Shown: positions 13,909-31,331 of the stretch, one piece after another
How the letters are laid out: each line of letters opens with the position of its first letter
Position numbering within the stretch: position 1 is the stretch's first letter
IMG/VR virus record: IMGVR_UViG_3300044568_004364
Strand: one strand, 5' to 3'
Length of the DNA: 64,000 nucleotides
DNA from: a virus
Notes under the pieces: model-generated
What the model was told of the DNA's origin: nothing
The model's database searches: none
The model's input: the letters and a program-made list of their open reading frames with translations, nothing else
Made by a program: the position numbers and the translations under genes

Positions 13909-14005
13909 CTCGGTGTTAAATTGTTGTATGCGTTGCCCTGGGGTGTCCTTTATGTATTTATATAATAGGCTAGGTGTACCTTCAAAGCCTGCGCCATATT
14001 CTTCA

Positions 14006-14989: not shown

Positions 14990-14994
14990 TATAA

Positions 14995-15483: not shown

Positions 15484-15505
15484 CGTATAGTATATTTATA
15501 TATAC

Positions 15506-15973
15506 TTAACCTTTCTTATGGTTTGCCCATAAGTCAGCATCACCAGTTGTTCGTGTTTTACCACCAACTATAAAACTATTAACGCGTGCATACGCCCATT
15601 GAAATTGTCCTGCTCCCGGGCGATGCCCTGTTTTCCAAGCAGCCATTCCTCGATCAAATACTTGTTTAAGTATCCCATATGCAATTCCACTTTTTTCAGA
15701 TTTAGTCTTTAGTCCAGCAAGTTGCGCTTCTTCATCGAGCGTTTGGTATTGATCAAAATCTACAGATTCTTTACCATATTTTGCAGCATACGCTTTGGTA
15801 TATTTGGAAGGAACTGTTTCAGCTGAGGCGTCACCGGGTGCAGGCTTGTATGCCGAAGGATCGTCATCGTCCTTTGATGCTTGACGATTAAATTGTGCAG
15901 CCCGACGTGCGCGTGTGCTCTTTGCAAGACCAGTATAATAGTCTTCATCTAAATATCTTTTAAAGCTTTTCAT
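15506..15973 (-). CDS. conserved phage protein with capsid-targeting-like N-terminus
   Basis: MKSFKRYLDE; RGMAAWKTGHRPG...QWAYARVNSF. Confidence 0.65.
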   Translation of the reverse strand: MKSFKRYLDEDYYTGLAKSTRARRAAQFNRQASKDDDDPSAYKPAPGDASAETVPSKYTKAYAAKYGKESVDFDQYQTLDEEAQLAGLKTKSEKSGIAYGILKQVFDRGMAAWKTGHRPGAGQFQWAYARVNSFIVGGKTRTTGDADLWANHKKG

Positions 15974-15998
15974 ATGTATTGTTTAAATCCTATCATAT

Positions 15999-17051
15999 TT
16001 ATTTTGCGTATATTCCAGAACCAACCTCTAGATAAAATTTAGCTTCATTTGCTTCTTCACGCAATTTTGTTCTTATTTGAAAAATTGCTGCTTTTGTGTT
16101 CTTGTCGAGAAAAATCAAATTTGATCCTTTTACTTGTGCTATTAGTTTAACCGATTTTTTGAGTTTGTTAAAATAGTCTTGCGTGATTTCTTTTACAGCA
16201 CCGCGTTGTATATCAATTACATCTGCCAAATCATCACCAAATATATTTTTGCCTAAAAAGTTTAATGCATTGAGCGTAAAACTTGGGCTATTACTATTAA
16301 GAAGTATTTTGTCTTTCAAGTCTTCATACATACTTCTAATAAGTGCAAATTTAGCTTTTTGCTCAACAGGACCAACAAACGACTTTGCGAGTCTAACATA
16401 TTTTTCTTTTGCATCCCATTTTATATTAAGAGCTTCGGCAATGCCCAACATACCAAAGTATGGTGAAAGACTTGATACGGTAACCGATTCTGACTTCAAC
16501 GAAAACGGAATATCACCAGATGTTATCTTTTTATTTCCGTTACGTGTTTGTGCATATATTGTTAATGTGACATCTCCTTTGATTTTTCCGCCTGAGGATT
16601 CTCCAGCAATACCATCAGCAATAACAATAATGTTTATGATATCTGCAGTTTTATTTTTTAAGAATGTATTTATGGCAGCATCGGCACGACGGACAAATGC
16701 AGAATTTTGAACTGCCTTTATGAGCTGATCTATCTTCCTATCAATGTTTCCAATATCTTTTGATGACCTATACAAGACATCATAATCTTTACCAAAAGCA
16801 CCTTGTATAGATTTTGGTTTTAGTCTCATTTCAAATGAAACGTTAATAAAGTCAGGCATATTTTTTCCAACCTGACGTTTATTATTGGTCACTACATCAT
16901 ACTTAAATCTTCCTTTTGCAAAAACAGAGGTATCAATCTTAGTGCGAATTTGATTGAGTTTTTGTTTATCGACTTTTCCATATGCCAAGTACAAACTTAG
17001 AGCAATTGTAAAAATGCCTTCAATAACATCGCCTTCATTCAATTTGCCCAT
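15999..17051 (-). CDS. hypothetical late protein, possibly PD-(D/E)XK-like
   Basis: 350-aa ORF, KGDV...FSLK; late promoter at 17061-17068. Confidence 0.5.
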   Translation of the reverse strand: MGKLNEGDVIEGIFTIALSLYLAYGKVDKQKLNQIRTKIDTSVFAKGRFKYDVVTNNKRQVGKNMPDFINVSFEMRLKPKSIQGAFGKDYDVLYRSSKDIGNIDRKIDQLIKAVQNSAFVRRADAAINTFLKNKTADIINIIVIADGIAGESSGGKIKGDVTLTIYAQTRNGNKKITSGDIPFSLKSESVTVSSLSPYFGMLGIAEALNIKWDAKEKYVRLAKSFVGPVEQKAKFALIRSMYEDLKDKILLNSNSPSFTLNALNFLGKNIFGDDLADVIDIQRGAVKEITQDYFNKLKKSVKLIAQVKGSNLIFLDKNTKAAIFQIRTKLREEANEAKFYLEVGSGIYAK

Positions 17052-17063
17052 TGTAATATATAT

Positions 17064-17489
17064 TTATAATTTCATAAACATCTTATATAGCAAGGCTTCC
17101 ATACGCCGCGCTTCTTTTTCCCACGGGCGTGAATATTCGCATTCTTTACTCTTATAACGTACGCCATGCCATAGTTCATAATCTCCATGATAGACGAGTT
17201 CTTTAAGAGTAAATTGTTTTACGTGTACCAACTCATGAAAGAGCGTAAGTAAGAACTCTTTTGCGCATTGCACAAGATGTAAGTCAATATAATATGTATG
17301 TATATCAGTAGTACTATAGCATAATCCATAAGCGCCTTCCTTCTCTAACAGGTTGTTTGCGCACTTAACGGTAAGGTATAGACATCTCTTGCGTGGTAAC
17401 AATTCTTGTAGAGCAAATGTTATTGCTTTCTTTACTGTCGTTCGCAATTCAGGATCGTGTTTTAATCCATAGACACGTACTCTTATCAT
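17064..17489 (-). CDS. zincin-like metallopeptidase
   Basis: HELVHVKQF (HExxH) and PWEKEA. Confidence 0.7.
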   Translation of the reverse strand: MIRVRVYGLKHDPELRTTVKKAITFALQELLPRKRCLYLTVKCANNLLEKEGAYGLCYSTTDIHTYYIDLHLVQCAKEFLLTLFHELVHVKQFTLKELVYHGDYELWHGVRYKSKECEYSRPWEKEARRMEALLYKMFMKL

Positions 17490-17509
17490 ACAATATTAAT
17501 TATAAACAA

Positions 17510-17541
17510 TTTTGGCGCTACCATTTCTGATAGCGCCAAAA
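17510..17541 (-). terminator. intrinsic terminator
   Basis: TTTTGGCGCTA...TAGCGCCAAAA hairpin. Confidence 0.65.
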
Positions 17542-17563
17542 TGAGTTGGGTTTTTAAAATCTC

Positions 17564-19093
17564 TTATGCGTAATCTTCAATCATACGCGCAAGTTCGCTA
17601 TCTGGAATTTCAATACCAGCTGCAAGCGCGCCTGCTGACATATTCAATCCACGTGATAACTTACGAAGGTTTGCGCTTTGCTTGCTCTTACCTTTGCGAA
17701 GTAATTCAACAACATGTAATCTTGATTTTTGGTCCAGTTTCATGCCGTCAGCCAATTCAATGGTGCCAACAATCTTCTCCATGAAATCATAAATTTCCAT
17801 TTCGGTTGGATCGATGTTAATAATAAGTGCGCGTGTACGCAGCGCACCATCTGGATCCAATTTATCCAAGCTCAAGTTGGAGATAAAGATAATCTTACCA
17901 GTAAATTCAAAGTAACGTGGGATTTGACCGTTATCGAGAATTTCTTCGTCTGTAAGATCTCCTTCAGGATCAACTACGTTTTTGCCCATCTTGTTCCATA
18001 CGAGCTTACGTACCTTCTTAGTATCGGTTGCCGCTTTAAGAAGGTTACGTGCTTCTTGGTCGCCCAATGCATCGTCACTATCATCGAAGAATACAACTTC
18101 ATTCTTATAACGGAACAACAAGCTATATAGTCCAGCAGCACTTGCGCTACCTGTATTCTTGAAGTAACCGTTACCATCTCTCAATCCAAGGTCGGCAAGA
18201 ATCTTTTCTGTGGTGTGTGTTTTACCTACGCCGCCTTTACCAGATACAAACAGTGCATTGGATGCGCCGTTTACTGTAAATTTAACAAGGCGCTCAAGAT
18301 CTTGCAATTGCGCTTCAAAGGATAGGCGTGTACGTTGATTTTCAAGCTCGTCAATTTGAGCATCTCCTTTATAGCGCTCTATTGAACTACCTTTGGTAAT
18401 CTTACCTGTTACAATACCAACCTTTTGCAAGATTTCTTCTTTGCCGCTCTTAAGTGCTTTAAGATCTTTATTAGAGCCAGCCCAGACATACTTGGTGCCT
18501 TGCTTGGTAATAAGATCTGGGTATTTCATTTCAAGCGCATCAAAAATCTTTACGCCTGAACTTTTAAATGCATTCCAAACTTTACCTTTGCTAAAAGAAG
18601 GGTCAACAATCATATCGACAATTTCGTCAAAGATTGTATCAAAGTCGTATTCAGCTGCCTCATGCAATACGTTTTCATATAGCGGTACACCATCAGCAAT
18701 AGTGCTAATAGATCCTAGTGATGGTGTGCCACTGCTAATAATGTCAGCAATCACTGGAAGTGTTTTTACAAGAGATACAGTTTGATCAAATTCAATGTGA
18801 AATGGCGCAGATGAGATACCATCCCAATAGTCAATACTCTCAAGGTTATTTAATCCTGCAGCTCCACTTTGTTTCCAGTTAAAACGTACGCTAAGTCCTT
18901 TACGCACTGCATAGAAACGTAATCCAAAACCAACACCGTTGGAATTTTGATATTGCTCTAGGCCTGGGTAGCGGAAGAAAACTTTACCAGTCTTCTTTTT
19001 AAGATAACGTGAAATAATGAATGCAGCTTTATTAACACCAGAGGTGGATAGCGCTTCGGATAGGTATTCTTTATAATGATTTAGGCTTGACAT
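17564..19093 (-). CDS. AAA+ ATPase with N-terminal extension
   Basis: Walker A GKGGVGKT, Walker B VVFFDD, IIFISN, ALRTR; tandem late promoters at 19099-19106 and 19113-19120. Confidence 0.75.
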   Translation of the reverse strand: MSSLNHYKEYLSEALSTSGVNKAAFIISRYLKKKTGKVFFRYPGLEQYQNSNGVGFGLRFYAVRKGLSVRFNWKQSGAAGLNNLESIDYWDGISSAPFHIEFDQTVSLVKTLPVIADIISSGTPSLGSISTIADGVPLYENVLHEAAEYDFDTIFDEIVDMIVDPSFSKGKVWNAFKSSGVKIFDALEMKYPDLITKQGTKYVWAGSNKDLKALKSGKEEILQKVGIVTGKITKGSSIERYKGDAQIDELENQRTRLSFEAQLQDLERLVKFTVNGASNALFVSGKGGVGKTHTTEKILADLGLRDGNGYFKNTGSASAAGLYSLLFRYKNEVVFFDDSDDALGDQEARNLLKAATDTKKVRKLVWNKMGKNVVDPEGDLTDEEILDNGQIPRYFEFTGKIIFISNLSLDKLDPDGALRTRALIINIDPTEMEIYDFMEKIVGTIELADGMKLDQKSRLHVVELLRKGKSKQSANLRKLSRGLNMSAGALAAGIEIPDSELARMIEDYA

Positions 19094-19123: not shown

Positions 19124-19672
19124 TTACACATTTAAGCCACTCACTGCACGAGACTTTCGTCCAGAACTAAACGGCGTATTGGCCACAGGCGTGTTATCAG
19201 GCTCTGTTGAGATGTTTGCCATAGGATCACTAATATCATACAGTCTCATCTTTGGTAAATCAATTCCAATAGTAAATCGCTTGTTGGTTGTTGGATCATT
19301 GTACCGATTCTTAAGTTGCTTAACCATAATTTGATTCATCTTGTCAAGTTGTTCGGTGCGAATAAATGCAAGCATCAAATCGGCTGTTGCAGGTAGTCCA
19401 AAACTGTTTTTTGTTAAAATGCCGTTGCAGTAAAATAGGTTATCGCCTGAGGTTGAAATGTCTGTAGTTTCAACCTCACCAACATCCTCAATAGAAACAA
19501 TAGGATCATTATAATTTAGGTTAAGATCACTTTTTGTATTCTTATCAATTTTTTCAGTTTCAAGCGCAATTAACATATCAGTTAATTCAAAAACATCGGT
19601 ATGTTCGGACACCATACCCTTTGTGATAAGCTCATTTGCTTTAATTAGACAATATTCTTCAAGCGGTTGCAT
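19124..19672 (-). CDS. 41: gp41 helicase fragment 3: IntC-2 (19406-19672) plus C-terminal extein
   Basis: ...DISTSGDNLFYCNGILTKN|SFGLPATAD...KQLKNRYND. Confidence 0.9.
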   Translation of the reverse strand: MQPLEEYCLIKANELITKGMVSEHTDVFELTDMLIALETEKIDKNTKSDLNLNYNDPIVSIEDVGEVETTDISTSGDNLFYCNGILTKNSFGLPATADLMLAFIRTEQLDKMNQIMVKQLKNRYNDPTTNKRFTIGIDLPKMRLYDISDPMANISTEPDNTPVANTPFSSGRKSRAVSGLNV

Positions 19673-20720
19673 AGTATTTTTCTTTAATATTTTGTGTTAT
19701 AGTATTTCTTTTTAATTCAAGATCTTCGTCCGACCATACAATGTATAAATCATGGCCGTACTGTTTAATAGTATTTTCTTTAATATGGTTATAAGCAAGG
19801 TTTTCTTCTTTAGATCCAAAGCCTTTCCACTCAGTTTCAGGACGCGCGTGCCAAAATGCACCATTATATTCAATTGTTATTTTTAATGATTGAATCGTAA
19901 AATCATAAAAGAAGTTCATGCCATTATAATGATGCGCAAATTCTTTACTTCCGCGAATGCCCCAAAAGATATCATTTTTATTAACACCTAGTTTTCTAAT
20001 ACTTTTATAAAGCGGGATGAAAAATTTAAGTGATTCCTTTGAGCATTTGCCATTCACTGCAGTTGTGCCAAACCGTTCAATCAATGTAGCCTTTCGTTTT
20101 TCGTGCTGTGCTTTTAATTTAGTCGTACCTATATCAAACCCATATTTTTCAATATAATTTGCATATGATAACTCAGATTTTATAGAAATTTGTTTTCTGA
20201 GAATTTCCGACTCGTTTAAATCATAGCCTCTAGCAATCCAATATTCAATACAATTGGGTAAATATTCTTTATAACTTAAGCTGTTCAATTTAAATTTATG
20301 ATGCTTCTTCTTTGAGTTTTTACTTTGCAATTCAGAAACCTGCTTTTTGGCTTCTTCGGCAGATAAGCCTTTAGCAATCCAATAAGTAATCGTAAAGCAT
20401 GAATTAATATTTACCGCTTTGGGCCGCGCCGCGTATGTGGTTTTTAACTTTTTACCTGAGCCTAAGCCATGTCTAATATCCGCTTTACGATATTGATTAT
20501 TAGATGAATTGTATTCTGTGAATAATGAAATATATGAATTTTCATTATTCATAAGTATGTCTTTAAACAATTCATATTTGCGCTTAAGGGACGATGATAG
20601 TTTTTTATGACCAATATATTCAGCTATAAATTGAATAAAATATTGTTTTTTATCATCAGGCAATTTATTAATTATGTCACGTATGGGTTTTCTCTCTAAT
20701 GGATCAGTAATAGCTATCAT
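19659..20720 (-). CDS. Vsr-like (EDxHD) homing endonuclease
   Basis: Repeated YWIAxG units plus C-terminal FYDF...IEYNGAFWH; lies between split-intein halves; late promoter at 20740-20747. Confidence 0.8.
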   Translation of the reverse strand: MIAITDPLERKPIRDIINKLPDDKKQYFIQFIAEYIGHKKLSSSLKRKYELFKDILMNNENSYISLFTEYNSSNNQYRKADIRHGLGSGKKLKTTYAARPKAVNINSCFTITYWIAKGLSAEEAKKQVSELQSKNSKKKHHKFKLNSLSYKEYLPNCIEYWIARGYDLNESEILRKQISIKSELSYANYIEKYGFDIGTTKLKAQHEKRKATLIERFGTTAVNGKCSKESLKFFIPLYKSIRKLGVNKNDIFWGIRGSKEFAHHYNGMNFFYDFTIQSLKITIEYNGAFWHARPETEWKGFGSKEENLAYNHIKENTIKQYGHDLYIVWSDEDLELKRNTITQNIKEKYYATA

Positions 20721-20751
20721 AAAATCTGTAGTATGATATTATTTATAATAA

Positions 20752-21930
20752 TTACATTTTGCCGAGTACAACAGATAGAATGTCTGAAACATTTAATCCG
20801 GTATTAACACTAATACGTTTAACATTCCCATTGTTTTTACATGGAAATACATGATCCTTCGAAACAATTATTGATTTACCGCTTTCGGTTGTAATCTTTA
20901 CACAATCTTTCATCTTATTATGATGCTTAAACATTACTGTTTTATATTCATCATTTGCAGTAATTTGGTCACCTAGTTTAACTTCATCGAGTGTTTTAAC
21001 TTGTCCATCACGCATAGTAACGGATTCAGTAATAGCAATACATTCACTTGTATCCGTAATTTCGATATCACTGCTGGAATATCCCGCTCTTGTAACTTGA
21101 GTTGCGCTCCAGATAGGAACATTAAATTCAACAGCCAATCCACGAATTTCTTCAGCAATACTTTTGATAAGACTATAAGTATTGACACTACCGCTCAATC
21201 CTTTCATGCGACTACTCGCGCAAATGTTTAGATAATCAATATAAATGATGTCTGGCTCAAACTTCTTTTTCAATTTGAGTTCAAGTAACAATGCGCGAAA
21301 GTGACCAACGTGTGCGCTCGCGGTTGGATATTCTTTGACAACAAGTTTACCTTTGGTTTTATCGCTAATACCTTTAACCTTTGTGTTGAATGATGCTTTA
21401 GTCAAGTCTTTTAATTGGTCAATACGAACATCAAAAAGATTGGCATCAATACGTTCTGCAATCTTTTCTTCAGCCATTTCCATTGTAATGTATAGTACAT
21501 TACGACCTTGTGCCAATGCAGCGCTTGCCATGTGACACATACCTAAGCTCTTTCCGCAACCCGTATTATGTGAAGAAACACCATCAGTATAGTATCGGTG
21601 ATTTTCATGCTCAACTTGAATATCAACGATTGGAATTTGCTTTCCTGTTTTTGTAACAATACCAATTTGGTATCCGTCTTCAGTCAGATATTGCTGTTTT
21701 TTAAGAACTAGATCTTTTGCATATTGCCAACCATCAATAGTTTCAAACAAGTGATTTTCATTGACTCGAATAACTTTTCCGCTATTAAGCAATAAAACGT
21801 ATTCTTCCCACATTCCTTTATCAACAAATGCTGATACGGGAACAAAACCATCGGGTGAATCTACTTCTATTGTGTATCCTGCATTCAGGAGCTCTTCAAT
21901 TTCTTTAATTTTAATAATTTTTTCGGTCAT
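20752..21930 (-). CDS. 41: gp41 helicase fragment 2: IntC-1 (21565-21930), middle extein, IntN-2 (20755-21042)
   Basis: HRYYTDGVSSHN|TGCGKS, YITMEM, IDYLNI, SATQ...DTSE|CIAITES...SKDHVFP. Confidence 0.92.
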   Translation of the reverse strand: MTEKIIKIKEIEELLNAGYTIEVDSPDGFVPVSAFVDKGMWEEYVLLLNSGKVIRVNENHLFETIDGWQYAKDLVLKKQQYLTEDGYQIGIVTKTGKQIPIVDIQVEHENHRYYTDGVSSHNTGCGKSLGMCHMASAALAQGRNVLYITMEMAEEKIAERIDANLFDVRIDQLKDLTKASFNTKVKGISDKTKGKLVVKEYPTASAHVGHFRALLLELKLKKKFEPDIIYIDYLNICASSRMKGLSGSVNTYSLIKSIAEEIRGLAVEFNVPIWSATQVTRAGYSSSDIEITDTSECIAITESVTMRDGQVKTLDEVKLGDQITANDEYKTVMFKHHNKMKDCVKITTESGKSIIVSKDHVFPCKNNGNVKRISVNTGLNVSDILSVVLGKM

Positions 21931-21983
21931 ATAAAGGTGTGATTTGTATAAATATAATGTTAGCTGGAACAGGAATCAATCTT

Positions 21984-22799
21984 ATGAAATTTTACGCTCG
22001 AATCTATTATAACATATGTAATGAAAATGTAAATAACAAAATTCATTATTGTAAAGGATCAAACATACATAAACATCATATCATTCCACGACATGCGGGC
22101 GGCGGAGAAGATGAAAGTAATTTTACTTACCTTAGTATTAGACAGCATATAGCAGCACATTTCTTATTGTGGAAAATTCATGGTATGGTTAATGACCTAC
22201 GATCAATGCATATGCTAGGAGCAAATTTAACATATGAACAAAGACGTATTGTTGGCAAATGGTGTTATGAGAATAAGATAGGAATGTTTTCAATTGGTAA
22301 GGAAGATCGAGCTGAAATTTCACGTAAAGGAATTAAGACACAAATTAAAAATAAATTAGGCATTCACAATCCAGAAAACTTTTCAAAATTTGCATCACTT
22401 GGTGGAAAAGCTTCAATAATTTCGCCCAATAACCCATGGGCGTATTGGGCCTCAAAGGAAGGCCGCTCGAAGCGTGGACATATGGGAGGAAAATCACATA
22501 TTGGTAAATTATGGATTCATAAAAACGATGTTATAACACGATGTCTTTATAATGAAATTCAACAAAAAATTGATGAAGGATGGCAATACGGTATGAAAGA
22601 TGGTGGAAAAGAATATGTGAATAACGGAGAAAAAACATTTCGTATTGAAACCAATAAGATATTTGAATTGCTTTTGCGTGGTTGGCAATTAGGAAAAGCA
22701 CGCAATTACCAACCAGATCGCAAGCGGTCTAAGAAAGAATTTTCTTATGAATCCTTACTCGAATTGGAGTCTCAGGGTGAACACAGCCGGCAAGAATAA
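21984..22799 (+). CDS. HNH homing endonuclease
   Basis: HKHHIIPRHAGG...N...H...H; GW-repeat C-terminal DNA-binding modules; plus-strand late promoter at 21947-21954. Confidence 0.85.
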   Translation: MKFYARIYYNICNENVNNKIHYCKGSNIHKHHIIPRHAGGGEDESNFTYLSIRQHIAAHFLLWKIHGMVNDLRSMHMLGANLTYEQRRIVGKWCYENKIGMFSIGKEDRAEISRKGIKTQIKNKLGIHNPENFSKFASLGGKASIISPNNPWAYWASKEGRSKRGHMGGKSHIGKLWIHKNDVITRCLYNEIQQKIDEGWQYGMKDGGKEYVNNGEKTFRIETNKIFELLLRGWQLGKARNYQPDRKRSKKEFSYESLLELESQGEHSRQE

Positions 22800-23379
22800 T
22801 ATTAAGCGTCTTGCGTGGTATACCTCCGCCTGTAATAACATTAAACATATCAAGATCAAATGGTATCTTATCTTCGGTCTTATGATAAAATTCATAACGG
22901 CTTTCAGCATTCTCAAGGTAATCGTGTCCTACATTTGTATCAAAAGTGACGCTTAATGCTTTACTTAATATAGTAGGAATTGAGCCTTCACTCTTTTCAA
23001 GATCTTTACCATCAATGATAGAGATTGACTCCATGATGGCAAGATATACTGCACGGTCCTTACACCATTTTTCGGTACTATCAATAATCCATTGCTCGTC
23101 AACCGTTAGGTGTTCTGATAATGCATTGATGTAATAGTTAACCTCGGCTGCATTGGCATTACGACTAGCGTCAGACGCCTTATATTCAATACTTAATGCT
23201 GTACTGTTTGGCAGCTTATTATACTTGGTAATAAACTTTAAGATAGCCTCATATATAGTGCGATGAATACCATCAAAATATTCAGGCTTTATGTGTGGCA
23301 GCGCTTTGCGACAAAATACTTCATTGTGTATAAGATTGTTAATGATTGTTGTTTCAAGATTTGTCTCCATGTTTTCCAA
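22729..23379 (-). CDS. 41: gp41 helicase fragment 1: N-extein plus 18-aa IntN-1 (22732-22785)
   Basis: gp41 N-terminal domain, GHDYLEN, GGIPRKTLNIILAG|CVHPETPIRVRIHKKILS*. Confidence 0.9.
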   Translation of the reverse strand: MENMETNLETTIINNLIHNEVFCRKALPHIKPEYFDGIHRTIYEAILKFITKYNKLPNSTALSIEYKASDASRNANAAEVNYYINALSEHLTVDEQWIIDSTEKWCKDRAVYLAIMESISIIDGKDLEKSEGSIPTILSKALSVTFDTNVGHDYLENAESRYEFYHKTEDKIPFDLDMFNVITGGGIPRKTLNIILAGCVHPETPIRVRIHKKILS

Positions 23380-23667: not shown

Positions 23668-24738
23668 TTATGCTTCGTCTTCGTGTAAGTCAACCATCGC
23701 GTCTTCGCTATCCGTAATCATGTCGCGTAAGCCAATGGTATACTTGTTCTTAATGTAATCTGCAAAATCAGTATTCTTAAATACGTTTTCCCAGAACTCT
23801 TTGGTCATGGTTGCAGCTTCACGCAATGAACCGCTAAGATCGGTTTTGGTTGCAGGGTTATGCGCAACATACCATCCGTTCTTTGGCTTCACTACATATC
23901 CAGCATCAACCGCAACAGCAAGTAATCCACTCCATTTTTCAATACCGCCTTTCCAACTTACACTAATTGGAATCTTGCTCTTTTCTTTAACAAAGCGGCT
24001 CTTCTCTACATTGATTACAAAGTGATAGCCTTGAATTTCGGTACCATCTTTATCTTGTTGGCGACCAATAATCCAAACATTGTCCGCACTATACATGATG
24101 CCAGTTCCACCGCTAACAATAGCTTTTGGGAACAAGCCAATTTCTTGATAGGTATGGTTGATTGCAAGCAAGCAAATGTTTTTCATTGTAAGGTATGGCG
24201 TAACCATACGGAACAATCCTTTAAGCGCTTTAGCACGTGTCATATCGGCCACGCTCTTTTCATTCATTGCATCTTCAAGTTCTTTCTTACTTGCAAGGTT
24301 ACCAACACTATCAATAACAATAATTACCTTATCTTTGCGCTCCATCTGCTCAAGCTGATTCACAATATCAAACTTAAGTTCTTCAATGTTTTTAATAGGA
24401 ATATGCAAGACACGCTTTGTGTCAATACCAAAGCTCTCAAAGTAACTCTGAGGACTGCCAAATTCACTATCATAAAACATAAGACATGCATCGCTATGTT
24501 TCTTAAGATATGCACTTGCCATAAGTAGTGCAAAGCTGGTCTTAAAGTGTTTACTTGGACCTGCAAGTACTGTTAGTCCACTTGTTAATCCAGCATCAAT
24601 GCTACCTCCAAGTGCAACATTAATCATTGGTACGCTTGTTGTAGTAATATCTTTCTCAGCATAAAATTCACTATCTGATAGGACATCCGCTTCTTTAATG
24701 CGGCAATTCTTTTTTAGTTTCTCTAGTATATTTGACAT
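23668..24738 (-). CDS. uvsX: RecA-like recombinase UvsX
   Basis: AGPSKHFKT, FYDSEFG, IDSVGNLAS, INHTY, EKSRFVKEK. Confidence 0.95.
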   Translation of the reverse strand: MSNILEKLKKNCRIKEADVLSDSEFYAEKDITTTSVPMINVALGGSIDAGLTSGLTVLAGPSKHFKTSFALLMASAYLKKHSDACLMFYDSEFGSPQSYFESFGIDTKRVLHIPIKNIEELKFDIVNQLEQMERKDKVIIVIDSVGNLASKKELEDAMNEKSVADMTRAKALKGLFRMVTPYLTMKNICLLAINHTYQEIGLFPKAIVSGGTGIMYSADNVWIIGRQQDKDGTEIQGYHFVINVEKSRFVKEKSKIPISVSWKGGIEKWSGLLAVAVDAGYVVKPKNGWYVAHNPATKTDLSGSLREAATMTKEFWENVFKNTDFADYIKNKYTIGLRDMITDSEDAMVDLHEDEA

Positions 24739-24780: not shown

Positions 24781-26013
24781 TCAATGTAAATGGAAAAATG
24801 CATCGAGTGGCTCAGTATTTGACTCTTCTTTAACGGTTAGAGCGCTGCTGTATACCTGTGACTTGTTATTTTGTTTGACATATGAACTTGGTCCAAAGTC
24901 AGTTTGACCAGCTAGGTAAGCCATGATCCCACGCATCATATCCGCAGCGGTACTCACAGGTACGTTTTGACATATATGATTAATCTTAGAGCGTGGATTA
25001 TCACCAGCTAGGTTAAAGTCATCAGGCATTTTCATAATGCGCATACATTCACGAACGGTAACAAATCGTCCAGTATATGCATTAATCAAATAGTGTGGCT
25101 GCGCGCCAATGAGTGAAGGAATTTCACCTTTGCCCATTGTAATACCATGCGCCCAGTAACCTTTCCCATCTTCAAGTTTCTTTTGCATTGCAACTGCACG
25201 GTCAGCAAAACGATCATATCCTTTATTACGCATCCAATCAGCAACATCATATAGTGTGCCATCAAATCCACGATCAGATTCTACAATACAATTTGTTGAC
25301 TTATTGATTTTGTTAAAGTAGTCCATGATTGTTTCCGATCCTGTCTTGTGCATGCAATAGCGGAGCCATGGGTTATCCATCGGATCATCGTTATTTCCGC
25401 GTATATTCATTGGATCATTTGGATCAATGGCACGTTCAAAGATACGTTCAACCGGCTCAAATTCACGACGGTGCCATGGGAATATTGGAGCGCGCTCACT
25501 GCGCGTAAAGAAGTAGAATGTACGCGGACGCTTTTGTGCAAGACCATGCAAGCGGCTTTCTGTATAATACAAGTTAAGACTATAACCATAACGCTGCCCA
25601 ATTTCATATAGGCGATCCGCTACAGGTGCGCCTGCACTCGTATATAGACGCGGCGCATTCTCTCCCCAAAATACTTTAGGTCCAATCTCACTCAATACAT
25701 ATTCTGCTGTGGTATATAACCAATCATTCACTGCACTATTTGCGCTGCTGCTTACGCTCAAGCTGCTAAGACCTGCGCATGGGCACACACTATTTACAAC
25801 ATCAACAGTTGATGGCTTATATGTTTTATCTTCATCGAGAAATACATAGTCACCAGTCCATCCACGCTTTTCGCGAATGTATTGTATATAATGACTATCA
25901 TTATTTTTAAACGGACTATAACTCAAGACATATTCTGGGAGCTGTCCATTTGTCGCTTCCATGATTCCTAAACTCTCTCCGCCAATAAGCGGGATTATTG
26001 ATGCATACTTCAT
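24781..26013 (-). CDS. C5 cytosine methyltransferase-like protein
   Basis: CPCAGLS (PC motif), GENAP, QKRPR, TVRECMR, QNVP; motif I altered to IPLIGG. Confidence 0.75.
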   Translation of the reverse strand: MKYASIIPLIGGESLGIMEATNGQLPEYVLSYSPFKNNDSHYIQYIREKRGWTGDYVFLDEDKTYKPSTVDVVNSVCPCAGLSSLSVSSSANSAVNDWLYTTAEYVLSEIGPKVFWGENAPRLYTSAGAPVADRLYEIGQRYGYSLNLYYTESRLHGLAQKRPRTFYFFTRSERAPIFPWHRREFEPVERIFERAIDPNDPMNIRGNNDDPMDNPWLRYCMHKTGSETIMDYFNKINKSTNCIVESDRGFDGTLYDVADWMRNKGYDRFADRAVAMQKKLEDGKGYWAHGITMGKGEIPSLIGAQPHYLINAYTGRFVTVRECMRIMKMPDDFNLAGDNPRSKINHICQNVPVSTAADMMRGIMAYLAGQTDFGPSSYVKQNNKSQVYSSALTVKEESNTEPLDAFFHLH

Positions 26014-26016
26014 ATA

Positions 26017-27285
26017 TTAATTTATAATTGCTTTAAGGCTATTCATTGTAGTGCGATTTAGTAATGTGCCATCGCGATGTTCTGTTGTGATCATATTCTT
26101 TAGGTTGGTTAAGAGTGTTTGATATGCGTCAGGGTTTTCTTCAAGAAAACTAATGCGCTTAAACAACTCCTTACTATCTGGCACTCTCAAAAACTCAGGA
26201 GCCTTCAAGTTATTTTGTTCATCATATGTTGGATGTAAGAATGGTATGACGCCATGATTTATCAGTTCCCAAAACTTCATTGTAGTCCATCCCTTCTTAA
26301 TGGGAATACAATATGAATATTTAACACGTGGTAATAGACGTTGTAACTCCTCATAGGGTAAACTACCTTTAAAGCGAGAGTCATCCCCAATTGTTTCAGG
26401 ATCCCACTTTCCATAAATCTCAACATCTTGTACACCATCAAGAATACTATTCTTTAGCATATCATAGCGTGAAGGACGTCCTTCGTTTAATACTACAAGA
26501 AATGATACATCCTTTTCAACTGGCGGGGACTCAACTGTAGGCTCGTCATTAAAGAAACTATCAAGTGTGCACTCATCTGGCGCTGCCGGCGGTGGATCAA
26601 TCAAATAGATTGTTTCCATTGATGCATACAAACATTCAAGTGGAAAACTATTTACCGTGTTATCTTTATATGCAATACGATGCTTGTATTGTATGGTCTC
26701 GTTATATTGTGATAGGACTGCACCAGGCGCATGCATAATATCTTTAGCCATAAATGGAAAATACCGCGGATCATTTACAATTAAAATGTATGGCACACGA
26801 TATTCATTTAGGTATGATGCTAGCGGACCAGTGTAACATCCAATCATTTCAATAGGGGTTGACTCCTGTGTTGGATTTTTCATTTGAGTGCAACGGTATG
26901 GAATATTCGTTGTTGCATTTGGTCCTGCAATAATGATTCCACCATCCATCTCTAATCCCGCACGTTTTGATTCTGCAGCCCAGTGATCTACGTATGCAAC
27001 ACGACCACCTAGTTTTGTAACAGTGTGGTTCTTCTTAAAGTTTTTCCAACCTTCGCCCCAGATATCGTGTACATTACCGTGACGATTAATACGATTGCGC
27101 TCACGCTCATCCAAACGGCTATAGTCATTACTGCCTAGCAGGTAAAAGTTTACCTCAGGATTATGATAAAAAAGGTTTTCGTAATATGTAGGAGCTTCAT
27201 TATCTCCGCCAATAGAGCCCCATGACTTGCGATTAAACAAGATGCTCTTTCCTAACTTTCCAACAAATATATTCATATTATCCAA
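26017..27285 (-). CDS. putative DNA glycosyltransferase (beta-gt-like, GT-B)
   Basis: Occupies the T4 beta-gt position between 42 and uvsX; EIYGKW, TMKFWE...GVIPF GT-B-like C-terminal motifs. Confidence 0.55.
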   Translation of the reverse strand: MDNMNIFVGKLGKSILFNRKSWGSIGGDNEAPTYYENLFYHNPEVNFYLLGSNDYSRLDERERNRINRHGNVHDIWGEGWKNFKKNHTVTKLGGRVAYVDHWAAESKRAGLEMDGGIIIAGPNATTNIPYRCTQMKNPTQESTPIEMIGCYTGPLASYLNEYRVPYILIVNDPRYFPFMAKDIMHAPGAVLSQYNETIQYKHRIAYKDNTVNSFPLECLYASMETIYLIDPPPAAPDECTLDSFFNDEPTVESPPVEKDVSFLVVLNEGRPSRYDMLKNSILDGVQDVEIYGKWDPETIGDDSRFKGSLPYEELQRLLPRVKYSYCIPIKKGWTTMKFWELINHGVIPFLHPTYDEQNNLKAPEFLRVPDSKELFKRISFLEENPDAYQTLLTNLKNMITTEHRDGTLLNRTTMNSLKAIIN

Positions 27286-28297
27286 TCTTTACGTTTTCAA
27301 TGTTTATGTTGCTCATATATGTAGACGGCACAATTGCGCCGCGCGCTATTTCAGCTTCAAGGTAACATACGGTATCATCCAGTGCAACAGCAATGCTGTG
27401 TGTTGGCTCCCAGCCCAACCCCTTCGCTTTAGTGATATCAGCATAAATATCAAATGCTTCTCCGTTAATCTCTGGCATATATGTATAGGTGATTTCTTGT
27501 GGTATATCATAACCACGCTTGCGCAATACATCGCCTACAATAGAACCAATTTCAAGTAGGCTATAACTTTCGCCACGCCCAAGATTATATGTTTCTCCAA
27601 TGGTACGAGAGTCTTTCATTGCAAGTAAATGGAAACTATTAATATCATTCACGTGAATAAAGTCACGACGACGTGCGCCATCTCCAAATATGATTGGGTG
27701 ATTGCCTGCCATAAGTCGTATTGCAAATCCTGCAAAGAGTGGCGGCACTGTGCGACGATAGTCTTGAATAGGACCTGCTACATTAAAGTAACGCAATGCT
27801 GTATATTCTAATCCTTTGGTGCGCGCATAACTCTCTGCCATAAGAGCAACACATGATTTGGATGTACTATAGAATGTTGTGGGATCGCTTTGATCTTCAC
27901 AAAATCCGTGCTGTGGTAATGCACAATTTTCATATACTGCACTTGTTTCTGAAAAGATAATTCTTGGGCAGCCATGCTCTAGGAGTGCATCAAATACATT
28001 CAATGAACCATAGACATTATTTAACAGCGCGCTTGCGGAGTCACGATGACAGTCATAAATGCTAACAAGTCCTGCAAAGTGGAATGTAACAGCTGGCTTG
28101 ACGCGGCCCACATAGTCAAAAAGTGTTTCACGTGATGTGATATCTCCTTTGCAAAAATTCACACGATCATGAACGGCTGGAATGTATGATCCTTGTGCAA
28201 GGTTATCATAAACATATACATCATGCCCTTCATCCAATAAGCTTGGGATTAAATTTGTACCGACAAAACCGGCACCTCCTGTAATTAGTACTTTCAT
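27278..28297 (-). CDS. NAD-dependent epimerase/dehydratase
   Basis: TGGAGFVG, YSTSK (YxxxK), LRYFNVAGP, RDFIHV. Confidence 0.88.
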   Translation of the reverse strand: MKVLITGGAGFVGTNLIPSLLDEGHDVYVYDNLAQGSYIPAVHDRVNFCKGDITSRETLFDYVGRVKPAVTFHFAGLVSIYDCHRDSASALLNNVYGSLNVFDALLEHGCPRIIFSETSAVYENCALPQHGFCEDQSDPTTFYSTSKSCVALMAESYARTKGLEYTALRYFNVAGPIQDYRRTVPPLFAGFAIRLMAGNHPIIFGDGARRRDFIHVNDINSFHLLAMKDSRTIGETYNLGRGESYSLLEIGSIVGDVLRKRGYDIPQEITYTYMPEINGEAFDIYADITKAKGLGWEPTHSIAVALDDTVCYLEAEIARGAIVPSTYMSNINIENVKIG

Positions 28298-28303
28298 ATT
28301 GAG

Positions 28304-28762
28304 TTATATATTGCTTGTGTTGCTTACACGTGTTCTTAGTTCTGTTGTGCTAAATGAATGGCGTCGTTTGTTATAATGTATTGGACACAGCCCAACGCCA
28401 GTATGATCCGTGCCTTTATATTCTTCACCAACAATACGTATGTCAGGATTGATTGTCATAATCATATCCACAAGATCTTTTTCAGTTTCAAATGGAATGA
28501 TTTCGTCAACATACTTACAGCTAGCAAGCTGTGTGTATCGCTCAAAGGCGCTTTGTATTGGTTTATTTTTTGTATCTGGACGATCACTCGTTGGATCAAC
28601 TAGTAATCCAACAATAAGATAGTCGCATAACTGTTTTGACTCCATAAGCATAACATTATGACCTGCATGAAACAAGTCAAATGTTGAGCAAGTGAATCCA
28701 ATCTTTACTTCATGTGGCTCCTTGCCAATACGTTCGGCAACTGATTTTCTATCAAAGAACAT
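28304..28762 (-). CDS. TagD/HldE-like cytidylyltransferase
   Basis: STFDLFHAGH, VGEEY, FSTTELR. Confidence 0.85.
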   Translation of the reverse strand: MFFDRKSVAERIGKEPHEVKIGFTCSTFDLFHAGHNVMLMESKQLCDYLIVGLLVDPTSDRPDTKNKPIQSAFERYTQLASCKYVDEIIPFETEKDLVDMIMTINPDIRIVGEEYKGTDHTGVGLCPIHYNKRRHSFSTTELRTRVSNTSNI

Positions 28763-29795
28763 TTAATTCTGCTGTTATAAGGTTAAGTATATTTGTACGA
28801 GAAGATTCAGGCGCATATGGTAATGCACGACAATATTGACCAAGAGCGTGTGCGCGTATTAGAGCAGCGTCCAATCCCGAATGAGCTACAACTTCAGATG
28901 TTGAGACACGCTCATATCCAAACATACCTATGCTTGCATAATATTTAGATATGTCGAGTACCCAACTGCTGTATAGCGTTGAGTCATTAATAGGATCAAT
29001 AAATGCAGGAACATCGCTCTCACACGAATTTTTGCCCATGATATTACTGACAGAGCAATCTCCATGGCCAAATGTGTATGGCGTGCTTTTCATTGCATGC
29101 TGCAATATGTTCTTAATCTTTTCAACTTGTAGCGGTTGCAAATATTTCATAGCACGTGCAGTGCAACGCTCTACATAACGTGCAGGATCAGAGTCTCCTT
29201 GTAGTGCAGGATGGTTAGAAAATGAGCGTATAACATTTACAACACTATAGACACTTCCATTATATTCTGGCAACATATCCATGCGAATAGTATCACCAAT
29301 AATGTTGTGAATGTATGGCGTATTATATCCTAAGTCTTTTGCATGTTCATACCATCCTATTGCACTATGACTGTTGCCTGCAGTCTTATAGACGCAATCT
29401 GTTACACGATCATAATAGACGCTTGCTCCGCTCCAGCCTGCATTCAAGTCAATACGATCAAACTTTTCTACAAATTGTTCTGGTGTAATACCCTTATCAT
29501 CAATGTAATATGCCGCAAGTTTCTTTTGAAACGAAAGCGTATGATAACAAACATCGTGCGCAACCAACCAACTCTCAATTTGATTCCGATACTTAAGATC
29601 GGCTGCATCGCAATCTCCATTGCAAGATAGCTGCCCACGTGCAGTGACAATATGAATTGTCCAACCGCAATGATATAATTCATTTAGTTTAGAGATTAAT
29701 GATGTGTTGGGTTTAGCATGCTCCCAGTCACGATTGAATGTTATTGCAATCGTATCATCATAATCCACAACAAGTGTAGTAGTATGCGAACTCAT
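28752..29795 (-). CDS. HAD phosphatase fused to APH/choline-kinase-like domain
   Basis: VVDYDDTI, TAR, YIDDK; C-terminal HGDCSVSN...FIDP. Confidence 0.75.
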   Translation of the reverse strand: MSSHTTTLVVDYDDTIAITFNRDWEHAKPNTSLISKLNELYHCGWTIHIVTARGQLSCNGDCDAADLKYRNQIESWLVAHDVCYHTLSFQKKLAAYYIDDKGITPEQFVEKFDRIDLNAGWSGASVYYDRVTDCVYKTAGNSHSAIGWYEHAKDLGYNTPYIHNIIGDTIRMDMLPEYNGSVYSVVNVIRSFSNHPALQGDSDPARYVERCTARAMKYLQPLQVEKIKNILQHAMKSTPYTFGHGDCSVSNIMGKNSCESDVPAFIDPINDSTLYSSWVLDISKYYASIGMFGYERVSTSEVVAHSGLDAALIRAHALGQYCRALPYAPESSRTNILNLITAELNVL

Positions 29796-29816
29796 ATGAG
29801 TGTATCTATAGCATTA

Positions 29817-30149
29817 TTATTTGCTTCTGTTTAAGAAGTCACGATTAGTGTCTTGTCCATCAATACCGCCACGGCACCATGCTACGAGAAAGCTTGAATA
29901 ATTAATCAAGTCTTTACCGCTATCTTCAATGCTCTCAAAGTTGGGTACATAATCAGGATCGCTTTCCATTGCTTCAATTACGCTATACATACGCAAGACT
30001 TTCGCTTGAATAATATCAAGGATACTTGCGGCACCGCGAGGATAATAGTCAGCCTGACGAATGCGGCTATGTGGGTTTTGATAGTCATTACTTTTCTTAA
30101 GCTGCAATTCAGCGCACTCTTCAAGAACTATAATTGATTGTTTCTTCAT
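29817..30149 (-). CDS. nucleotide-modification-associated small helical protein
   Basis: LQLKKSNDY...K..R...EDS..DLINY. Confidence 0.6.
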   Translation of the reverse strand: MKKQSIIVLEECAELQLKKSNDYQNPHSRIRQADYYPRGAASILDIIQAKVLRMYSVIEAMESDPDYVPNFESIEDSGKDLINYSSFLVAWCRGGIDGQDTNRDFLNRSK

Positions 30150-30192
30150 GTTGTTATATTATACGGTTTGTGATGAATTGTAAATGGAAAAG

Positions 30193-30855
30193 TTATGCAT
30201 GTGCGATATATTTTTCAATCATGCTGTAATGCCGCTCATATACGTGCAAGCTGCCCACTTGCCATGTGATATTCCCAGCTGGGACACCTAGGTCAGCTGC
30301 CAGTTGCTGCAAGACATACAGCTGCCATGCATAGTCATTGCGATATCCGAAGACCACATCATTGCTCCGCATCTGCACAACAGCATGGAGCGCGCCATTA
30401 CGCTGCAAGTATTGTACTGCATTAGTACAAATAAAGTCACTCATGCCGTCGGCGCAATATTCTGTTTGTATACTAGGGCGTGTGTAAATCATAATTGCAC
30501 GACGTGAAAACGGATTATTTCTTAGCTCTGCAAGTGCTGAATCATATTGACTTTTGTTTTCTGCACTATAGACAAGGTAACCATAGTTACTATTAATAAG
30601 TCCTTCACGCGATGCTACGCTTTCCCAAATCTTTGGAGTGACACCTGGGATGTCTGCTACTCTCAAGCTTTGTGATAGGTACCATTCCAATTCACGTTGG
30701 ATATAGTCATCATTAGGTTCGCCAAAGATTGCGGGTTCATCAGCCATAAAGCTAGCACCAACAAGTTCAATTGTGCTACCGCCATTCTTATCAAGCACAA
30801 AGTCACGGTCTTTATATGCTTGTATAAAATAATCTCTAAGGTTTGCTACATTCAT
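30193..30855 (-). CDS. 42: dCMP hydroxymethylase (thymidylate-synthase fold)
   Basis: INSNYG, DFICTN, MRSNDVVFGYRNDYAWQ, GSLHVYERH closely match T4 gp42, including the dCMP-specifying Asp. Confidence 0.88.
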   Translation of the reverse strand: MNVANLRDYFIQAYKDRDFVLDKNGGSTIELVGASFMADEPAIFGEPNDDYIQRELEWYLSQSLRVADIPGVTPKIWESVASREGLINSNYGYLVYSAENKSQYDSALAELRNNPFSRRAIMIYTRPSIQTEYCADGMSDFICTNAVQYLQRNGALHAVVQMRSNDVVFGYRNDYAWQLYVLQQLAADLGVPAGNITWQVGSLHVYERHYSMIEKYIAHA

Positions 30856-31226
30856 GCGAAAATAATGTTACGAATATCAATTAGTTGTTTAAGGTGAAAA
30901 CCGTCTTGTTCATGTAATTCAACTGAATACGATGTGTATTCATCAAGGCTATCTTCAAGATCGGATATGATAATCTTGTCAAGCAACTTTGGACGGTCAA
31001 ATTTAATATATGTATAGACATCAGATACTGCATCATGTACATTGTGACCACCTTCGGTGGAATCGCAAACGGTTTCTTCAAGGAAACTTTTATCTTCAAC
31101 CAATGAAACAACTCTAGAAAACATCTGTTCCTGTAACAGATTTTCGCCATATTCTTTTTTCTTTTTTGCAGATACCATTGCTGATAGTCTACCCATTAAT
31201 GTATCGGTTTGTATTGTACTTTCCAT
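30852..31226 (-). CDS. hypothetical protein
   Basis: ORF coupled to gp42; promoter-like TTTACA-N17-TATAAT upstream. Confidence 0.55.
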   Translation of the reverse strand: MESTIQTDTLMGRLSAMVSAKKKKEYGENLLQEQMFSRVVSLVEDKSFLEETVCDSTEGGHNVHDAVSDVYTYIKFDRPKLLDKIIISDLEDSLDEYTSYSVELHEQDGFHLKQLIDIRNIIFA

Positions 31227-31331
31227 ATAGATTATTATATCAAAAAAATCGAAAATGTAAATAACTTTTTTAGAAAAAAAGAGAGCAAAGATGACTCCCT
31301 GCTCTCTTAAAAGTGGTGCTATAGTTAGCGC

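Follow-up and report, generated by a model that had tools for sequence, protein, structure and literature searches.

Phage T4 uses the UDP-glucose of its host as sugar donor for its DNA and encodes no donor pathway of its own. Other described systems include donor synthesis. Pyle, Lund, O'Toole & Saleh reconstituted metavirome gene clusters in E. coli with DNA containing 5-hydroxymethylcytosine (5hmC), and for one of these, contig 53, a bifunctional HAD/APH enzyme, a cytidylyltransferase and a glycosyltransferase (GT) of the GT-B type, with 429 aa and an architecture like that of T4 beta-glucosyltransferase (BGT), were all essential, leading to 5-heptosyl-mC (449 u) and di-heptosyl-mC (641 u); in that study, GT-B pathways were found more often near a thymidylate synthase (TS) homologue (28%) than near a TET-like enzyme (bioRxiv 10.1101/2023.12.21.572611). 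In phage HY126, as far as the system is summarised in PMC13326640, AfhE phosphorylates arabinose-5-phosphate (Ara5P) at C1, yielding Ara1,5P2, and AfhF removes the 5-phosphate, yielding Ara1P. Here we describe a gene cluster of an uncultured T4-like phage that, unlike T4, carries its own donor genes. It is located in a 64,000-nt stretch (the window) of the IMG/VR record IMGVR_UViG_3300044568_004364, a 73-kb fragment that represents about 37% of a genome.

We consider it fairly probable that this cluster is a pre-replicative cytosine hypermodification operon that decorates 5hmC with an activated sugar made by the phage itself. It comprises eight tightly packed or overlapping minus-strand genes from 31226 to 24781, between a PhoH gene and uvsX. 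All seven genes that a preliminary description had placed between 30855 and 24781 are indeed present there on the minus strand, each with a family match. The genes are, in the order of transcription:

30852..31226, minus strand: 124-aa protein, first gene of the unit, with an ATGA overlap (4 bases) with the start of gp42
30193..30855, minus strand: gp42 orthologue, 220 aa, thymidylate-synthase family (PF00303, 1.8e-18)
29817..30149, minus strand: DUF1599/Nmad1 protein, 110 aa (phrog_1485, 2.6e-11)
28752..29795, minus strand: fusion of a HAD phosphatase and an APH/choline-kinase-like kinase, 347 aa (TIGR01689, 9e-15; phrog_1238)
28304..28762, minus strand: nucleotidyltransferase of the cytidylyltransferase fold, 152 aa (PF01467, 9e-16; phrog_7878, 2.6e-29)
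27278..28297, minus strand: extended short-chain dehydrogenase/reductase (SDR), a GalE-like nucleoside diphosphate (NDP)-sugar epimerase, 339 aa (PF01370, 9e-48)
26017..27276, minus strand: putative DNA glycosyltransferase with GT-B fold, 419 aa, closest structure T4 BGT
24781..26013, minus strand: protein with C5-cytosine-methyltransferase (MTase) fold, 410 aa (PF00145, 7e-17)

The acceptor base can be predicted from the TS-family gene. Its product matches T4 dCMP hydroxymethylase (1b49) over residues 2-215 with 290 bits (E 9e-86), and it is about 60% identical to gp42 of Tequatrovirus and about 23% to the 5-hydroxy-dCMP synthases of Mosigvirus and DLP3. With E. coli ThyA as the reference, the diagnostic positions of the family have been defined as follows: C146 is the catalytic residue, N177D indicates dCMP as substrate, L143D/E a non-methyl product, and D169N is characteristic of 5-hydroxy-dCMP synthases (Lee et al., PMC13326640). 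In the alignment the window protein reads MSDFICTN and MRSNDVVFGYRNDYAW, as in T4, with the catalytic Cys (FICTN), an acidic residue at ThyA L143 (MSD), and Asp both at D169 (RSND) and at N177 (RND/RNDYAW). The TS homologues of the Afh systems (RB69/HY126/DLP3) have Asn at D169, leading to 5-hydroxy-dCMP; DLP3 gp80 and the Mosigvirus homologue read RSQN where the window protein reads RSND. The protein is a true gp42 orthologue by its similarity to the T4 enzyme, and because its signature residues read as in T4, the predicted product is 5-hydroxymethyl-dCMP and not 5-hydroxy-dCMP. Of the two acceptors initially considered, hm-C or hydroxy-C, only the former agrees with the signature.

The origin of the 5hmC thus predicted differs from that in contig 53, in which it is made post-replicatively by a C5-methyltransferase (C5-MT) and a TET-like dioxygenase, whereas a pre-replicative route is expected with a gp42 orthologue. 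A TET-dependent reading was not supported for the window: a search for Tet_JBP, run without a positive control, found nothing in the incomplete record, nor in four relatives, of which two are at least 91% complete, and a gp42 orthologue is present instead.

The second protein on which the reading depends is the GT. The mechanically predicted open reading frame (ORF), adopted in the preliminary description, starts at a TTG at 27285, but the ATG at 27276 (419 aa, MNIFVGK) matches the starts of the homologues and is most likely the true start. The AlphaFold2 (AF2) model, built from a 32-sequence alignment, reached a predicted local distance difference test (pLDDT) score of 91.4. A Foldseek comparison of this model with the PDB ranked T4 BGT first (2e-9), and the top 50 structural neighbours are glycosyltransferases, with BGT leading. 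The structure search against BGT that had been proposed as a check of the earlier assignment was therefore positive, and at the level of the model it supports a DNA glycosyltransferase. The invariant Asp172 in the motif VNDPR is a candidate for the catalytic base (compare BGT Asp100). The window GT differs from BGT in being about 70 residues longer and in having a disordered loop with the sequence TLDSFF; with GT53 of contig 53 it shares the structural neighbours 3mbo, 1bgt and 2jjm. The protein has 394 uncharacterised metagenome relatives, and the conserved adjoining genes for donor synthesis argue for a donor other than host UDP-glucose.

Four genes lie between gp42 and the GT gene. The first encodes a DUF1599 protein ('nucleotide modification associated domain 1') that is 50-82% identical across the related loci and always found near the TS gene. 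PF07659 matches 11 of 12 orthologues (best 2.4e-7), while the window copy scores 0.035; a comparison of the family profile with PDB sequences yielded nothing meaningful, and a dCTPase-like role would be speculation. The 347-aa product of the second gene consists of a HAD domain (about residues 1-115) and a kinase domain (about 125-347) of the APH/choline-kinase type, and the motifs DxDxT, HGDxxxxN and IDP are invariant in the family. Relatives of the kinase domain match the Pfam families APH, Choline_kinase, EcKinase and RIO1, and a profile-profile alignment (hhalign) of this domain with the C-terminal kinase domain of AfhE-like proteins, among them those of DLP3 and a Mosigvirus, gave a probability of 97.1% (E 4.9e-11, 223 columns). 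The HAD family profile matched the PDB entries 9iqw ('capsule biosynthesis protein', 9e-17) and 1xpj (3e-16). We take 9iqw to be AfhF of phage HY126 on the basis of its entry series rather than its title. Given the steps assigned to AfhE and AfhF in HY126, the fusion joins two coupled steps that lead from a distal sugar phosphate to a sugar-1-phosphate. The HAD-kinase is therefore predicted to start from a sugar phosphate of the host and, with a bisphosphate as intermediate, to yield a sugar-1-phosphate.

The third gene encodes a nucleotidyltransferase of the HldE-II/TagD/ECT fold class, with the motifs FDLFHAGH and SFSTT. It matches TIGR02199 (rfaE domain II) with 2e-19 and 69.7 bits, compared with a cut-off of 181.5, and among PDB sequences the ethanolamine-phosphate cytidylyltransferase ECT (3elb, 2e-18), TagD (1coz, 1e-13) and 5x9q (3e-8). 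The fourth gene, present in some variants of the cluster only, encodes the SDR, in which the NAD motif GGAGFVG and the YxxxK motif YSTSK are intact and the TDE triad of dehydratases is lacking. It matches GalE of T. maritima (4zrm) with 1.8e-38, the galE model TIGR01179 with 9e-42 (143 bits; cut-off 262.3) and the heptose_epim model TIGR02197 with 1.4e-29 (103.3 bits; cut-off 274.6). These assignments support the earlier view that the phage encodes a kinase/phosphatase/nucleotidyltransferase/epimerase route to an NDP-sugar.

The route resembles three described pathways to different extents. As in contig 53, a HAD/APH enzyme and a cytidylyltransferase (models TIGR01689 and TIGR02199) are encoded together with a BGT-like GT-B, and the window adds the DUF1599 protein and the GalE-like SDR, the latter probably giving a different sugar isomer. 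The step order is the same as in the ADP-L-glycero-beta-D-manno-heptose pathway (GmhA, HldE, GmhB, HldD and heptosyltransferases), in which a heptose-7-phosphate kinase, a HAD phosphatase, a nucleotidyltransferase of the cytidylyltransferase fold, an SDR epimerase and a GT-B act in turn. However, the kinase of the window is APH-like and not ribokinase-like, its HAD domain belongs to the TIGR01689/AfhF subfamily and not to GmhB, no GmhA was found, the nucleotidyltransferase and the SDR remain below the equivalog cut-offs for HldE-II and HldD, and the acceptor would be DNA. With the Afh systems of RB69/HY126/DLP3 (PMC13326640) the window shares the logic of kinase, phosphatase, nucleotidyltransferase and GT-B, the AfhF-type HAD and AfhE-type kinase domains, and the slot between gene 43 and uvsX. 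The Afh phages have an arabinose-5-phosphate isomerase and a pyrophosphorylase of the MurU/RmlA fold fused to the kinase. The window has neither; instead, kinase and phosphatase form one fused protein, a separate PF01467 protein serves as nucleotidyltransferase, and an SDR is added.

To what extent the cluster is conserved is evident from a tblastn table of the 80 best related IMG/VR loci. The GT, the hydroxymethylase-type TS and a kinase/HAD/nucleotidyltransferase set occur together in nearly all 80 of them, in several gene orders. Wherever the upstream flank shows a TS gene, it is of the hydroxymethylase type, with Asp at ThyA D169 in those that were aligned (Pseudoalteromonas phage vB_Psh_XG4 and the loci L003 and L005). 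Overall, the nucleotidyltransferases are 69-82% and the SDRs 55-79% identical to those of the window. The arrangement of the window, with the SDR, is also found in L003, L007, L010-L014, L046 and L077, with identities of 58-61% for gp42, 75-82% for the DUF1599 protein, 54-66% for the HAD-kinase, 74-82% for the nucleotidyltransferase, 69-79% for the SDR, 52-65% for the GT and 60-64% for the MTase-like protein. At least three arrangements occur in all: a second has the same order without the SDR, and a third has an AfhE-like NTP_transferase-kinase and a small HAD protein. Because the same order recurs in independent metagenome contigs with protein identities of 52-82%, the arrangement is not due to chance. 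Gene identities, folds, signature residues and the conservation of the cluster are matters of observation. Among cultured phages, the Pseudoalteromonas phage vB_Psh_XG4 has a cluster of TS, HAD, AfhE-like, GT, GT-like and MTase-like genes, and in Denvervirus phages of Enterococcus a GT homologue belongs to a TS/kinase/GT cluster that has no MTase-like gene. Literature searches found nothing on Pseudoalteromonas phage XG4, and nothing on HY126 beyond PMC13326640.

Several of the related loci have additional features. In the Enterococcus phage Planchet (L002, OX422066.1 52199-53419), the GT homologue is 29% identical and belongs to a cluster of a Gram-positive phage with genes for a nucleotide kinase, a TS/pyrimidine hydroxymethylase, a dUTPase, a small PNK/HAD-like protein and two more GTs; an MTase-like gene is absent there. 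Second GT-like genes occur at L008:10272-11381 (Glycos_transf_1) and in XG4 (L001:4238-5344, weak GT match), with a homologue at L046:7877-9004 that has no Pfam match, and they suggest di- or branched glycans in these relatives. At L034:4327-5244, a 305-aa protein without a family is encoded between the HAD-kinase and the nucleotidyltransferase. In three loci, a MazG-like or MazZ-like (PF18909) pyrophosphohydrolase adjoins the gp42/DUF1599 pair (L030:8094-8342, L047:6644-7003 and L015:3911-4228, the last assigned from its opening motif only). These enzymes are candidates for the removal of dCTP, a step without a gene in the window record and in the complete relative G003.

For the substrates, the order of the steps, the identity of the sugar and DNA as the acceptor we infer the following scheme. 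The gp42 orthologue would convert dCMP to 5-hydroxymethyl-dCMP, which would then be incorporated into the phage DNA. The APH-like kinase domain would phosphorylate C1 of a host sugar phosphate, and the fused HAD domain would remove the distal phosphate from the resulting bisphosphate, leaving a sugar-1-phosphate. From this and an NTP, the enzyme of the cytidylyltransferase fold would form an NDP-sugar, which the GalE-like SDR would epimerise. The BGT-like GT-B would attach the sugar to 5hmC in duplex DNA at the hydroxymethyl group, probably near the replisome, and the MTase-like enzyme would be a conserved eighth component, probably tethered to the sliding clamp.

Several observations weigh against this scheme. 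The sequence homology between the GT and BGT is undetectable (hhalign probability 1.6%, E 0.032), and the likeness of the window to contig 53 is one of domain architecture and shared structural neighbours. The SDR scores higher with the GalE model than with the model of the ADP-heptose 6-epimerase, both scores being below the cut-offs. No sugar-phosphate isomerase of the SIS type (GmhA or the arabinose-5-phosphate isomerase API) was found in the record or in two relatives that are at least 91% complete; therefore, the phage must obtain its starting sugar phosphate from the host. Nor was a dCTPase (gp56, MazG) found in the 73-kb record or in these two relatives, so that the replacement of C may be incomplete. 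Finally, the Ara5P pathway of RB69/HY126/DLP3 has a kinase and a phosphatase to which the kinase and HAD domains of the window are homologous.

The last point is also a reason to consider that the donor is an NDP-pentofuranose of the arabinose type, possibly epimerised by the SDR, which would be made from arabinose-5-phosphate or another pentose-5-phosphate of the host and would result in pentosyl-5hmC. In line with this, many sister clusters pair an AfhE-like NTP_transferase-kinase and a small HAD protein with the same GT family. On the other hand, no arabinose-5-phosphate isomerase was found, unlike in RB69 and DLP3. To our knowledge, heptose-1-phosphate is the sole sugar-1-phosphate that serves as a substrate for this nucleotidyltransferase fold, which also counts against a pentose. 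Moreover, the architecture of a fused HAD/APH enzyme plus cytidylyltransferase resulted in heptose in E. coli (bioRxiv 10.1101/2023.12.21.572611). We therefore regard a pentose donor as unlikely, although it ranks second after heptose. Heptose seems to us a little more probable than all other sugars together. It is favoured because the phage kinase/phosphatase and nucleotidyltransferase of contig 53 were needed in E. coli, and for the same reason the SDR is read as an epimerase with a tailoring role, producing another isomer. Since ADP-heptose is synthesised by E. coli itself, the phage donor of contig 53 is presumably an NDP-heptose different from it. The logic of NDP-heptose synthesis suggested earlier for the window thus has an experimental precedent for the domain set (Pyle et al., bioRxiv 10.1101/2023.12.21.572611).

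The preliminary description had also allowed for a polyol donor. A CDP-alcohol (glycerol-, ribitol-, choline- or ethanolamine-phosphate) would be consistent with the best PDB sequence matches of the nucleotidyltransferase, which are ethanolamine-phosphate and glycerol-3-phosphate cytidylyltransferases, and with a kinase of the choline/APH class; the GT-B would then be a TagF-like phosphotransferase adding a phospho-polyol to 5hmC. However, the SDR belongs to the extended, GalE-like enzymes of NDP-sugars, and only a route via a sugar bisphosphate would explain why a kinase is coupled to a phosphatase. In addition, glycosyltransferases, headed by BGT, make up the top 50 structural neighbours of the GT, and the product of the precedent is a heptose. 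Therefore, we give this explanation very little weight. Just as improbable is that the acceptor is not DNA at all and that the sugar genes form an auxiliary metabolic or host-surface module, acting on lipopolysaccharide (LPS), the capsule or the glycosylation of virion proteins, that happens to lie beside gp42. Genes of the LPS type do occur in T4-like cyanophages, and the HAD is annotated as a 'capsule biosynthesis phosphatase'. Yet the best structural match of the GT is a DNA enzyme, and its gene occupies the b-gt slot; a hydroxymethylase-type TS is nearby wherever the upstream flank was fetched, a gene of the C5-MTase fold follows the GT in 77 of the 80 loci, and an equivalent module modified DNA in E. 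coli (bioRxiv 10.1101/2023.12.21.572611). The self-made sugar on 5hmC is thus the reading that we retain. The claim that the pathway is new has to be narrowed: the core of HAD/APH enzyme, cytidylyltransferase and BGT-like GT has already been reconstituted, and its association with TS homologues was noted (bioRxiv 10.1101/2023.12.21.572611). As far as we searched the literature, a native gp42-based operon with an epimerase, the family of modular variants and the near-obligate C5-MTase-like partner have not been described.

This partner is encoded directly downstream of the GT or one to two genes away in 77 of the 80 loci; two loci truly lack it, and in one the contig is cut off. The protein reaches the PF00145 threshold and has the fold, with motifs IV (PC), VI (EN) and VIII (QxRxR) present. 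Alignments of 29 to 56 relatives, with identities as low as 27%, show little or no variation in the motif IV Cys, in E-N-A-P of motif VI, in QxRxR of motif VIII and in motifs IX and X. The canonical forms of the SAM-binding motif I (FxGxG) and of motif X (GN) are replaced family-wide by PLIGG and CQNVP, as judged from the alignments. PCQ is changed to PCA, with Ala at the position of HhaI Q82, and the motif X Asn at the position of HhaI N304 is an invariant Gln (Gln349 in the window). Both positions line the pocket for the transferred group. In HhaI, Q82A and N304A are substitutions that enlarge this pocket for bulkier cofactors, a fact that we use as a lead only.

The protein has its fold and its catalytic motifs with Cys, Glu and Arg in common with known enzymes, that is, M.HaeIII and M.HhaI, the metavirome C5-MT clades III-VI (PMC8256090) and the carboxymethyltransferase CmoX (PMC12783734). 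In contrast to known C5-MTs, the window protein has a degenerate motif I, PCA for PCQ, a tail of the form (S/T)L(D/E)xF(F/M), and a phage DNA as its surroundings in which C5 would already be hydroxymethylated. In CmoX, a natural enzyme, the N304 position is an Arg that binds the transferred group (PMC12783734); it is thus changed in both proteins, to Gln in the window and to Arg in CmoX. A reading as CmoX together with CmoA was rejected, since the window protein has CPCA and not SPPC, and Gln349 and not Arg, and a search of the record and four relatives for CmoA (TIGR00740) found none.

If C5 is fully occupied by the hydroxymethyl group, a normal C5-methylase would be without a substrate. Searches for a dCTPase of the gp56/MazG type found none in complete relatives, and a MazZ-like enzyme is present in one relative. 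Residual C may be present, which leaves room for an ordinary methylase. The protein could then be a SAM-dependent C5-methyltransferase that adds a back-up layer on cytosines escaping replacement by 5hmC. We take this seriously but give it somewhat less than an even chance, given motif I as PLIGG and not FxGxG, the Ala and Gln at the Q82 and N304 positions throughout the family, the role of N304 as a specificity position in CmoX (PMC12783734), and the finding that metavirome C5-MT clades with divergent motifs VIII-X gave no methylation in E. coli (Burke et al., PMC8256090). The further methylation suggested in the preliminary description is thus unproven, with the catalytic motifs kept and motif I and two residues of the transferred-group pocket changed. 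A bolder proposal, to which we assign a low probability, is that the protein is not a methylase but a clamp-tethered enzyme that would use covalent Cys-C6 catalysis for another reaction of cytosine or 5hmC on newly replicated DNA, alongside the GT, leading to an undescribed base. Possible examples are the hydroxymethylation of residual C at the DNA level, or an activation or exchange at the 5-CH2OH group.

Two further homologues of the MTase-like protein were observed. Cyanophage S-TIM5 encodes a stand-alone homologue (L089, NC_019516.2 137304-138521) with PLVGG, PCAGLS, ENAP and QNVP; its gene is on the strand opposite to its neighbours and has no adjacent GT, and it could serve as a cultured test case. 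In a 187-kb relative, the gene at L005:9767-10750 is called with 327 aa and starts inside motif IV (AGLS), so that the N-terminal, SAM-side half is absent or in another frame.

A possible link of both enzymes to the replisome is provided by short motifs. In the model of the MTase-like protein, disorder extends over the last 18 residues, which include PLDAFF, and most of 56 relatives of the protein end in (S/T)L(D/E)xF(F/M/I). In the GT, TLDSFF is located in the only low-confidence loop (236-249); it is kept in most close relatives, and distant ones lack the loop. The C-terminus of T4 DNA polymerase is SLDFLFG, the known epitope for binding of the clamp. The gp45 clamp family (PF09116) had no match in the incomplete record. 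For the relative L005, a complex of three gp45 copies and the last 60 residues of the MTase-like protein was modelled and received the mark 'weak support' (median 0.42, best control 0.01), with runs agreeing in at least 27% of the contacts and a partner pLDDT of at least 32. In the calibration, 51 of the 78 solved complexes earned this mark, as did 2 of the 108 mismatched pairs; in the range up to 0.60, however, only 5 of the 78 solved complexes earned it, together with all 4 passing mismatches, and the L005 case is unlike the calibration set. A clamp-peptide complex has already been solved, and memory of it may contribute to the score of the model. A coupling of the MTase-like protein and the GT to the replisome via clamp-type motifs is plausible, with the modelled complex as a lead only, and the MTase-like enzyme is probably clamp-tethered.

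The genomic position agrees with the proposed function of the cluster. The assignment to the 42/beta-gt/uvsX slot of T4 was borne out: the order is 41-40-uvsX-segA-b-gt-42 in T4, and split gp41, uvsX, cluster and 42 in the window. Because the two orders correspond, the cluster stands in place of b-gt in the same slot. The operon probably starts one gene earlier than had been described, at the 124-aa ORF (31226-30852). Its product has no Pfam, PHROG or NCBIfam match, and weak homologues (27-32%) are found at the same position in contigs of the same architecture. The flanks contain UvsX and sites from a consensus scan for promoters and terminators, whose overall counts were not above those of shuffled sequences:

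31279..31308, minus strand: terminator-like hairpin, 13-bp stem followed by a T run, ending the upstream PhoH unit (consensus scan)
31234..31261, minus strand: promoter-like site of the sigma-70/early type, TTTACA-16-TATAAT with TG, upstream of the first operon gene (consensus match)
24790-24762, minus strand: promoter-like site before uvsX (consensus match)
23668..24738, minus strand: UvsX recombinase, flanking marker of the T4 slot (phrog_97, 1.8e-85; 51% identity to T4 UvsX)

Beyond uvsX, at 19124-23379 of the window, the gp41 helicase matches T4 gp41 in three pieces (48%, 30% and 40% identity), and an opposite-strand ORF between the pieces is consistent with a split by an intein or homing endonuclease. 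The region 12254-19093 comprises eight little-annotated minus-strand genes, including 14006-14989, which matches PHROG 'cytidyltransferase' families (phrog_395, 8e-36), and 15506-15973 (DUF5824); despite the PHROG labels, a sugar function of genes in this region has no Pfam support. A near-identity DNA search with the operon against 50,697 phage records gave no match. tblastn searches of the 73-kb record with T4 gp56, 43, 44, 45, 61, 62 and b-gt found none of them, which carries little weight for a fragment of this completeness.

With sugar-coated cytosines, phages escape restriction enzymes, CRISPR nucleases and defences that depend on modifications; the enzymes involved are of use for DNA labelling. 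The comparison described above places the HAD/APH, cytidylyltransferase and BGT-like module, so far demonstrated only with 5hmC made by MT/TET enzymes in E. coli, among the native partners of the classical gp42 route, with a wide distribution in T4-like phages that are uncultured. The versions of the module appear to be interchangeable, with or without an epimerase, with a second GT, or with an activator of the AfhE type, which predicts a family of different glycans on 5hmC. In addition, a large family of C5-MTase-like proteins has been singled out that almost always adjoins the GT, and its substrate is puzzling because C5 should already be occupied. With Pseudoalteromonas phage vB_Psh_XG4 as a cultured relative, the question of what this protein does has become testable.

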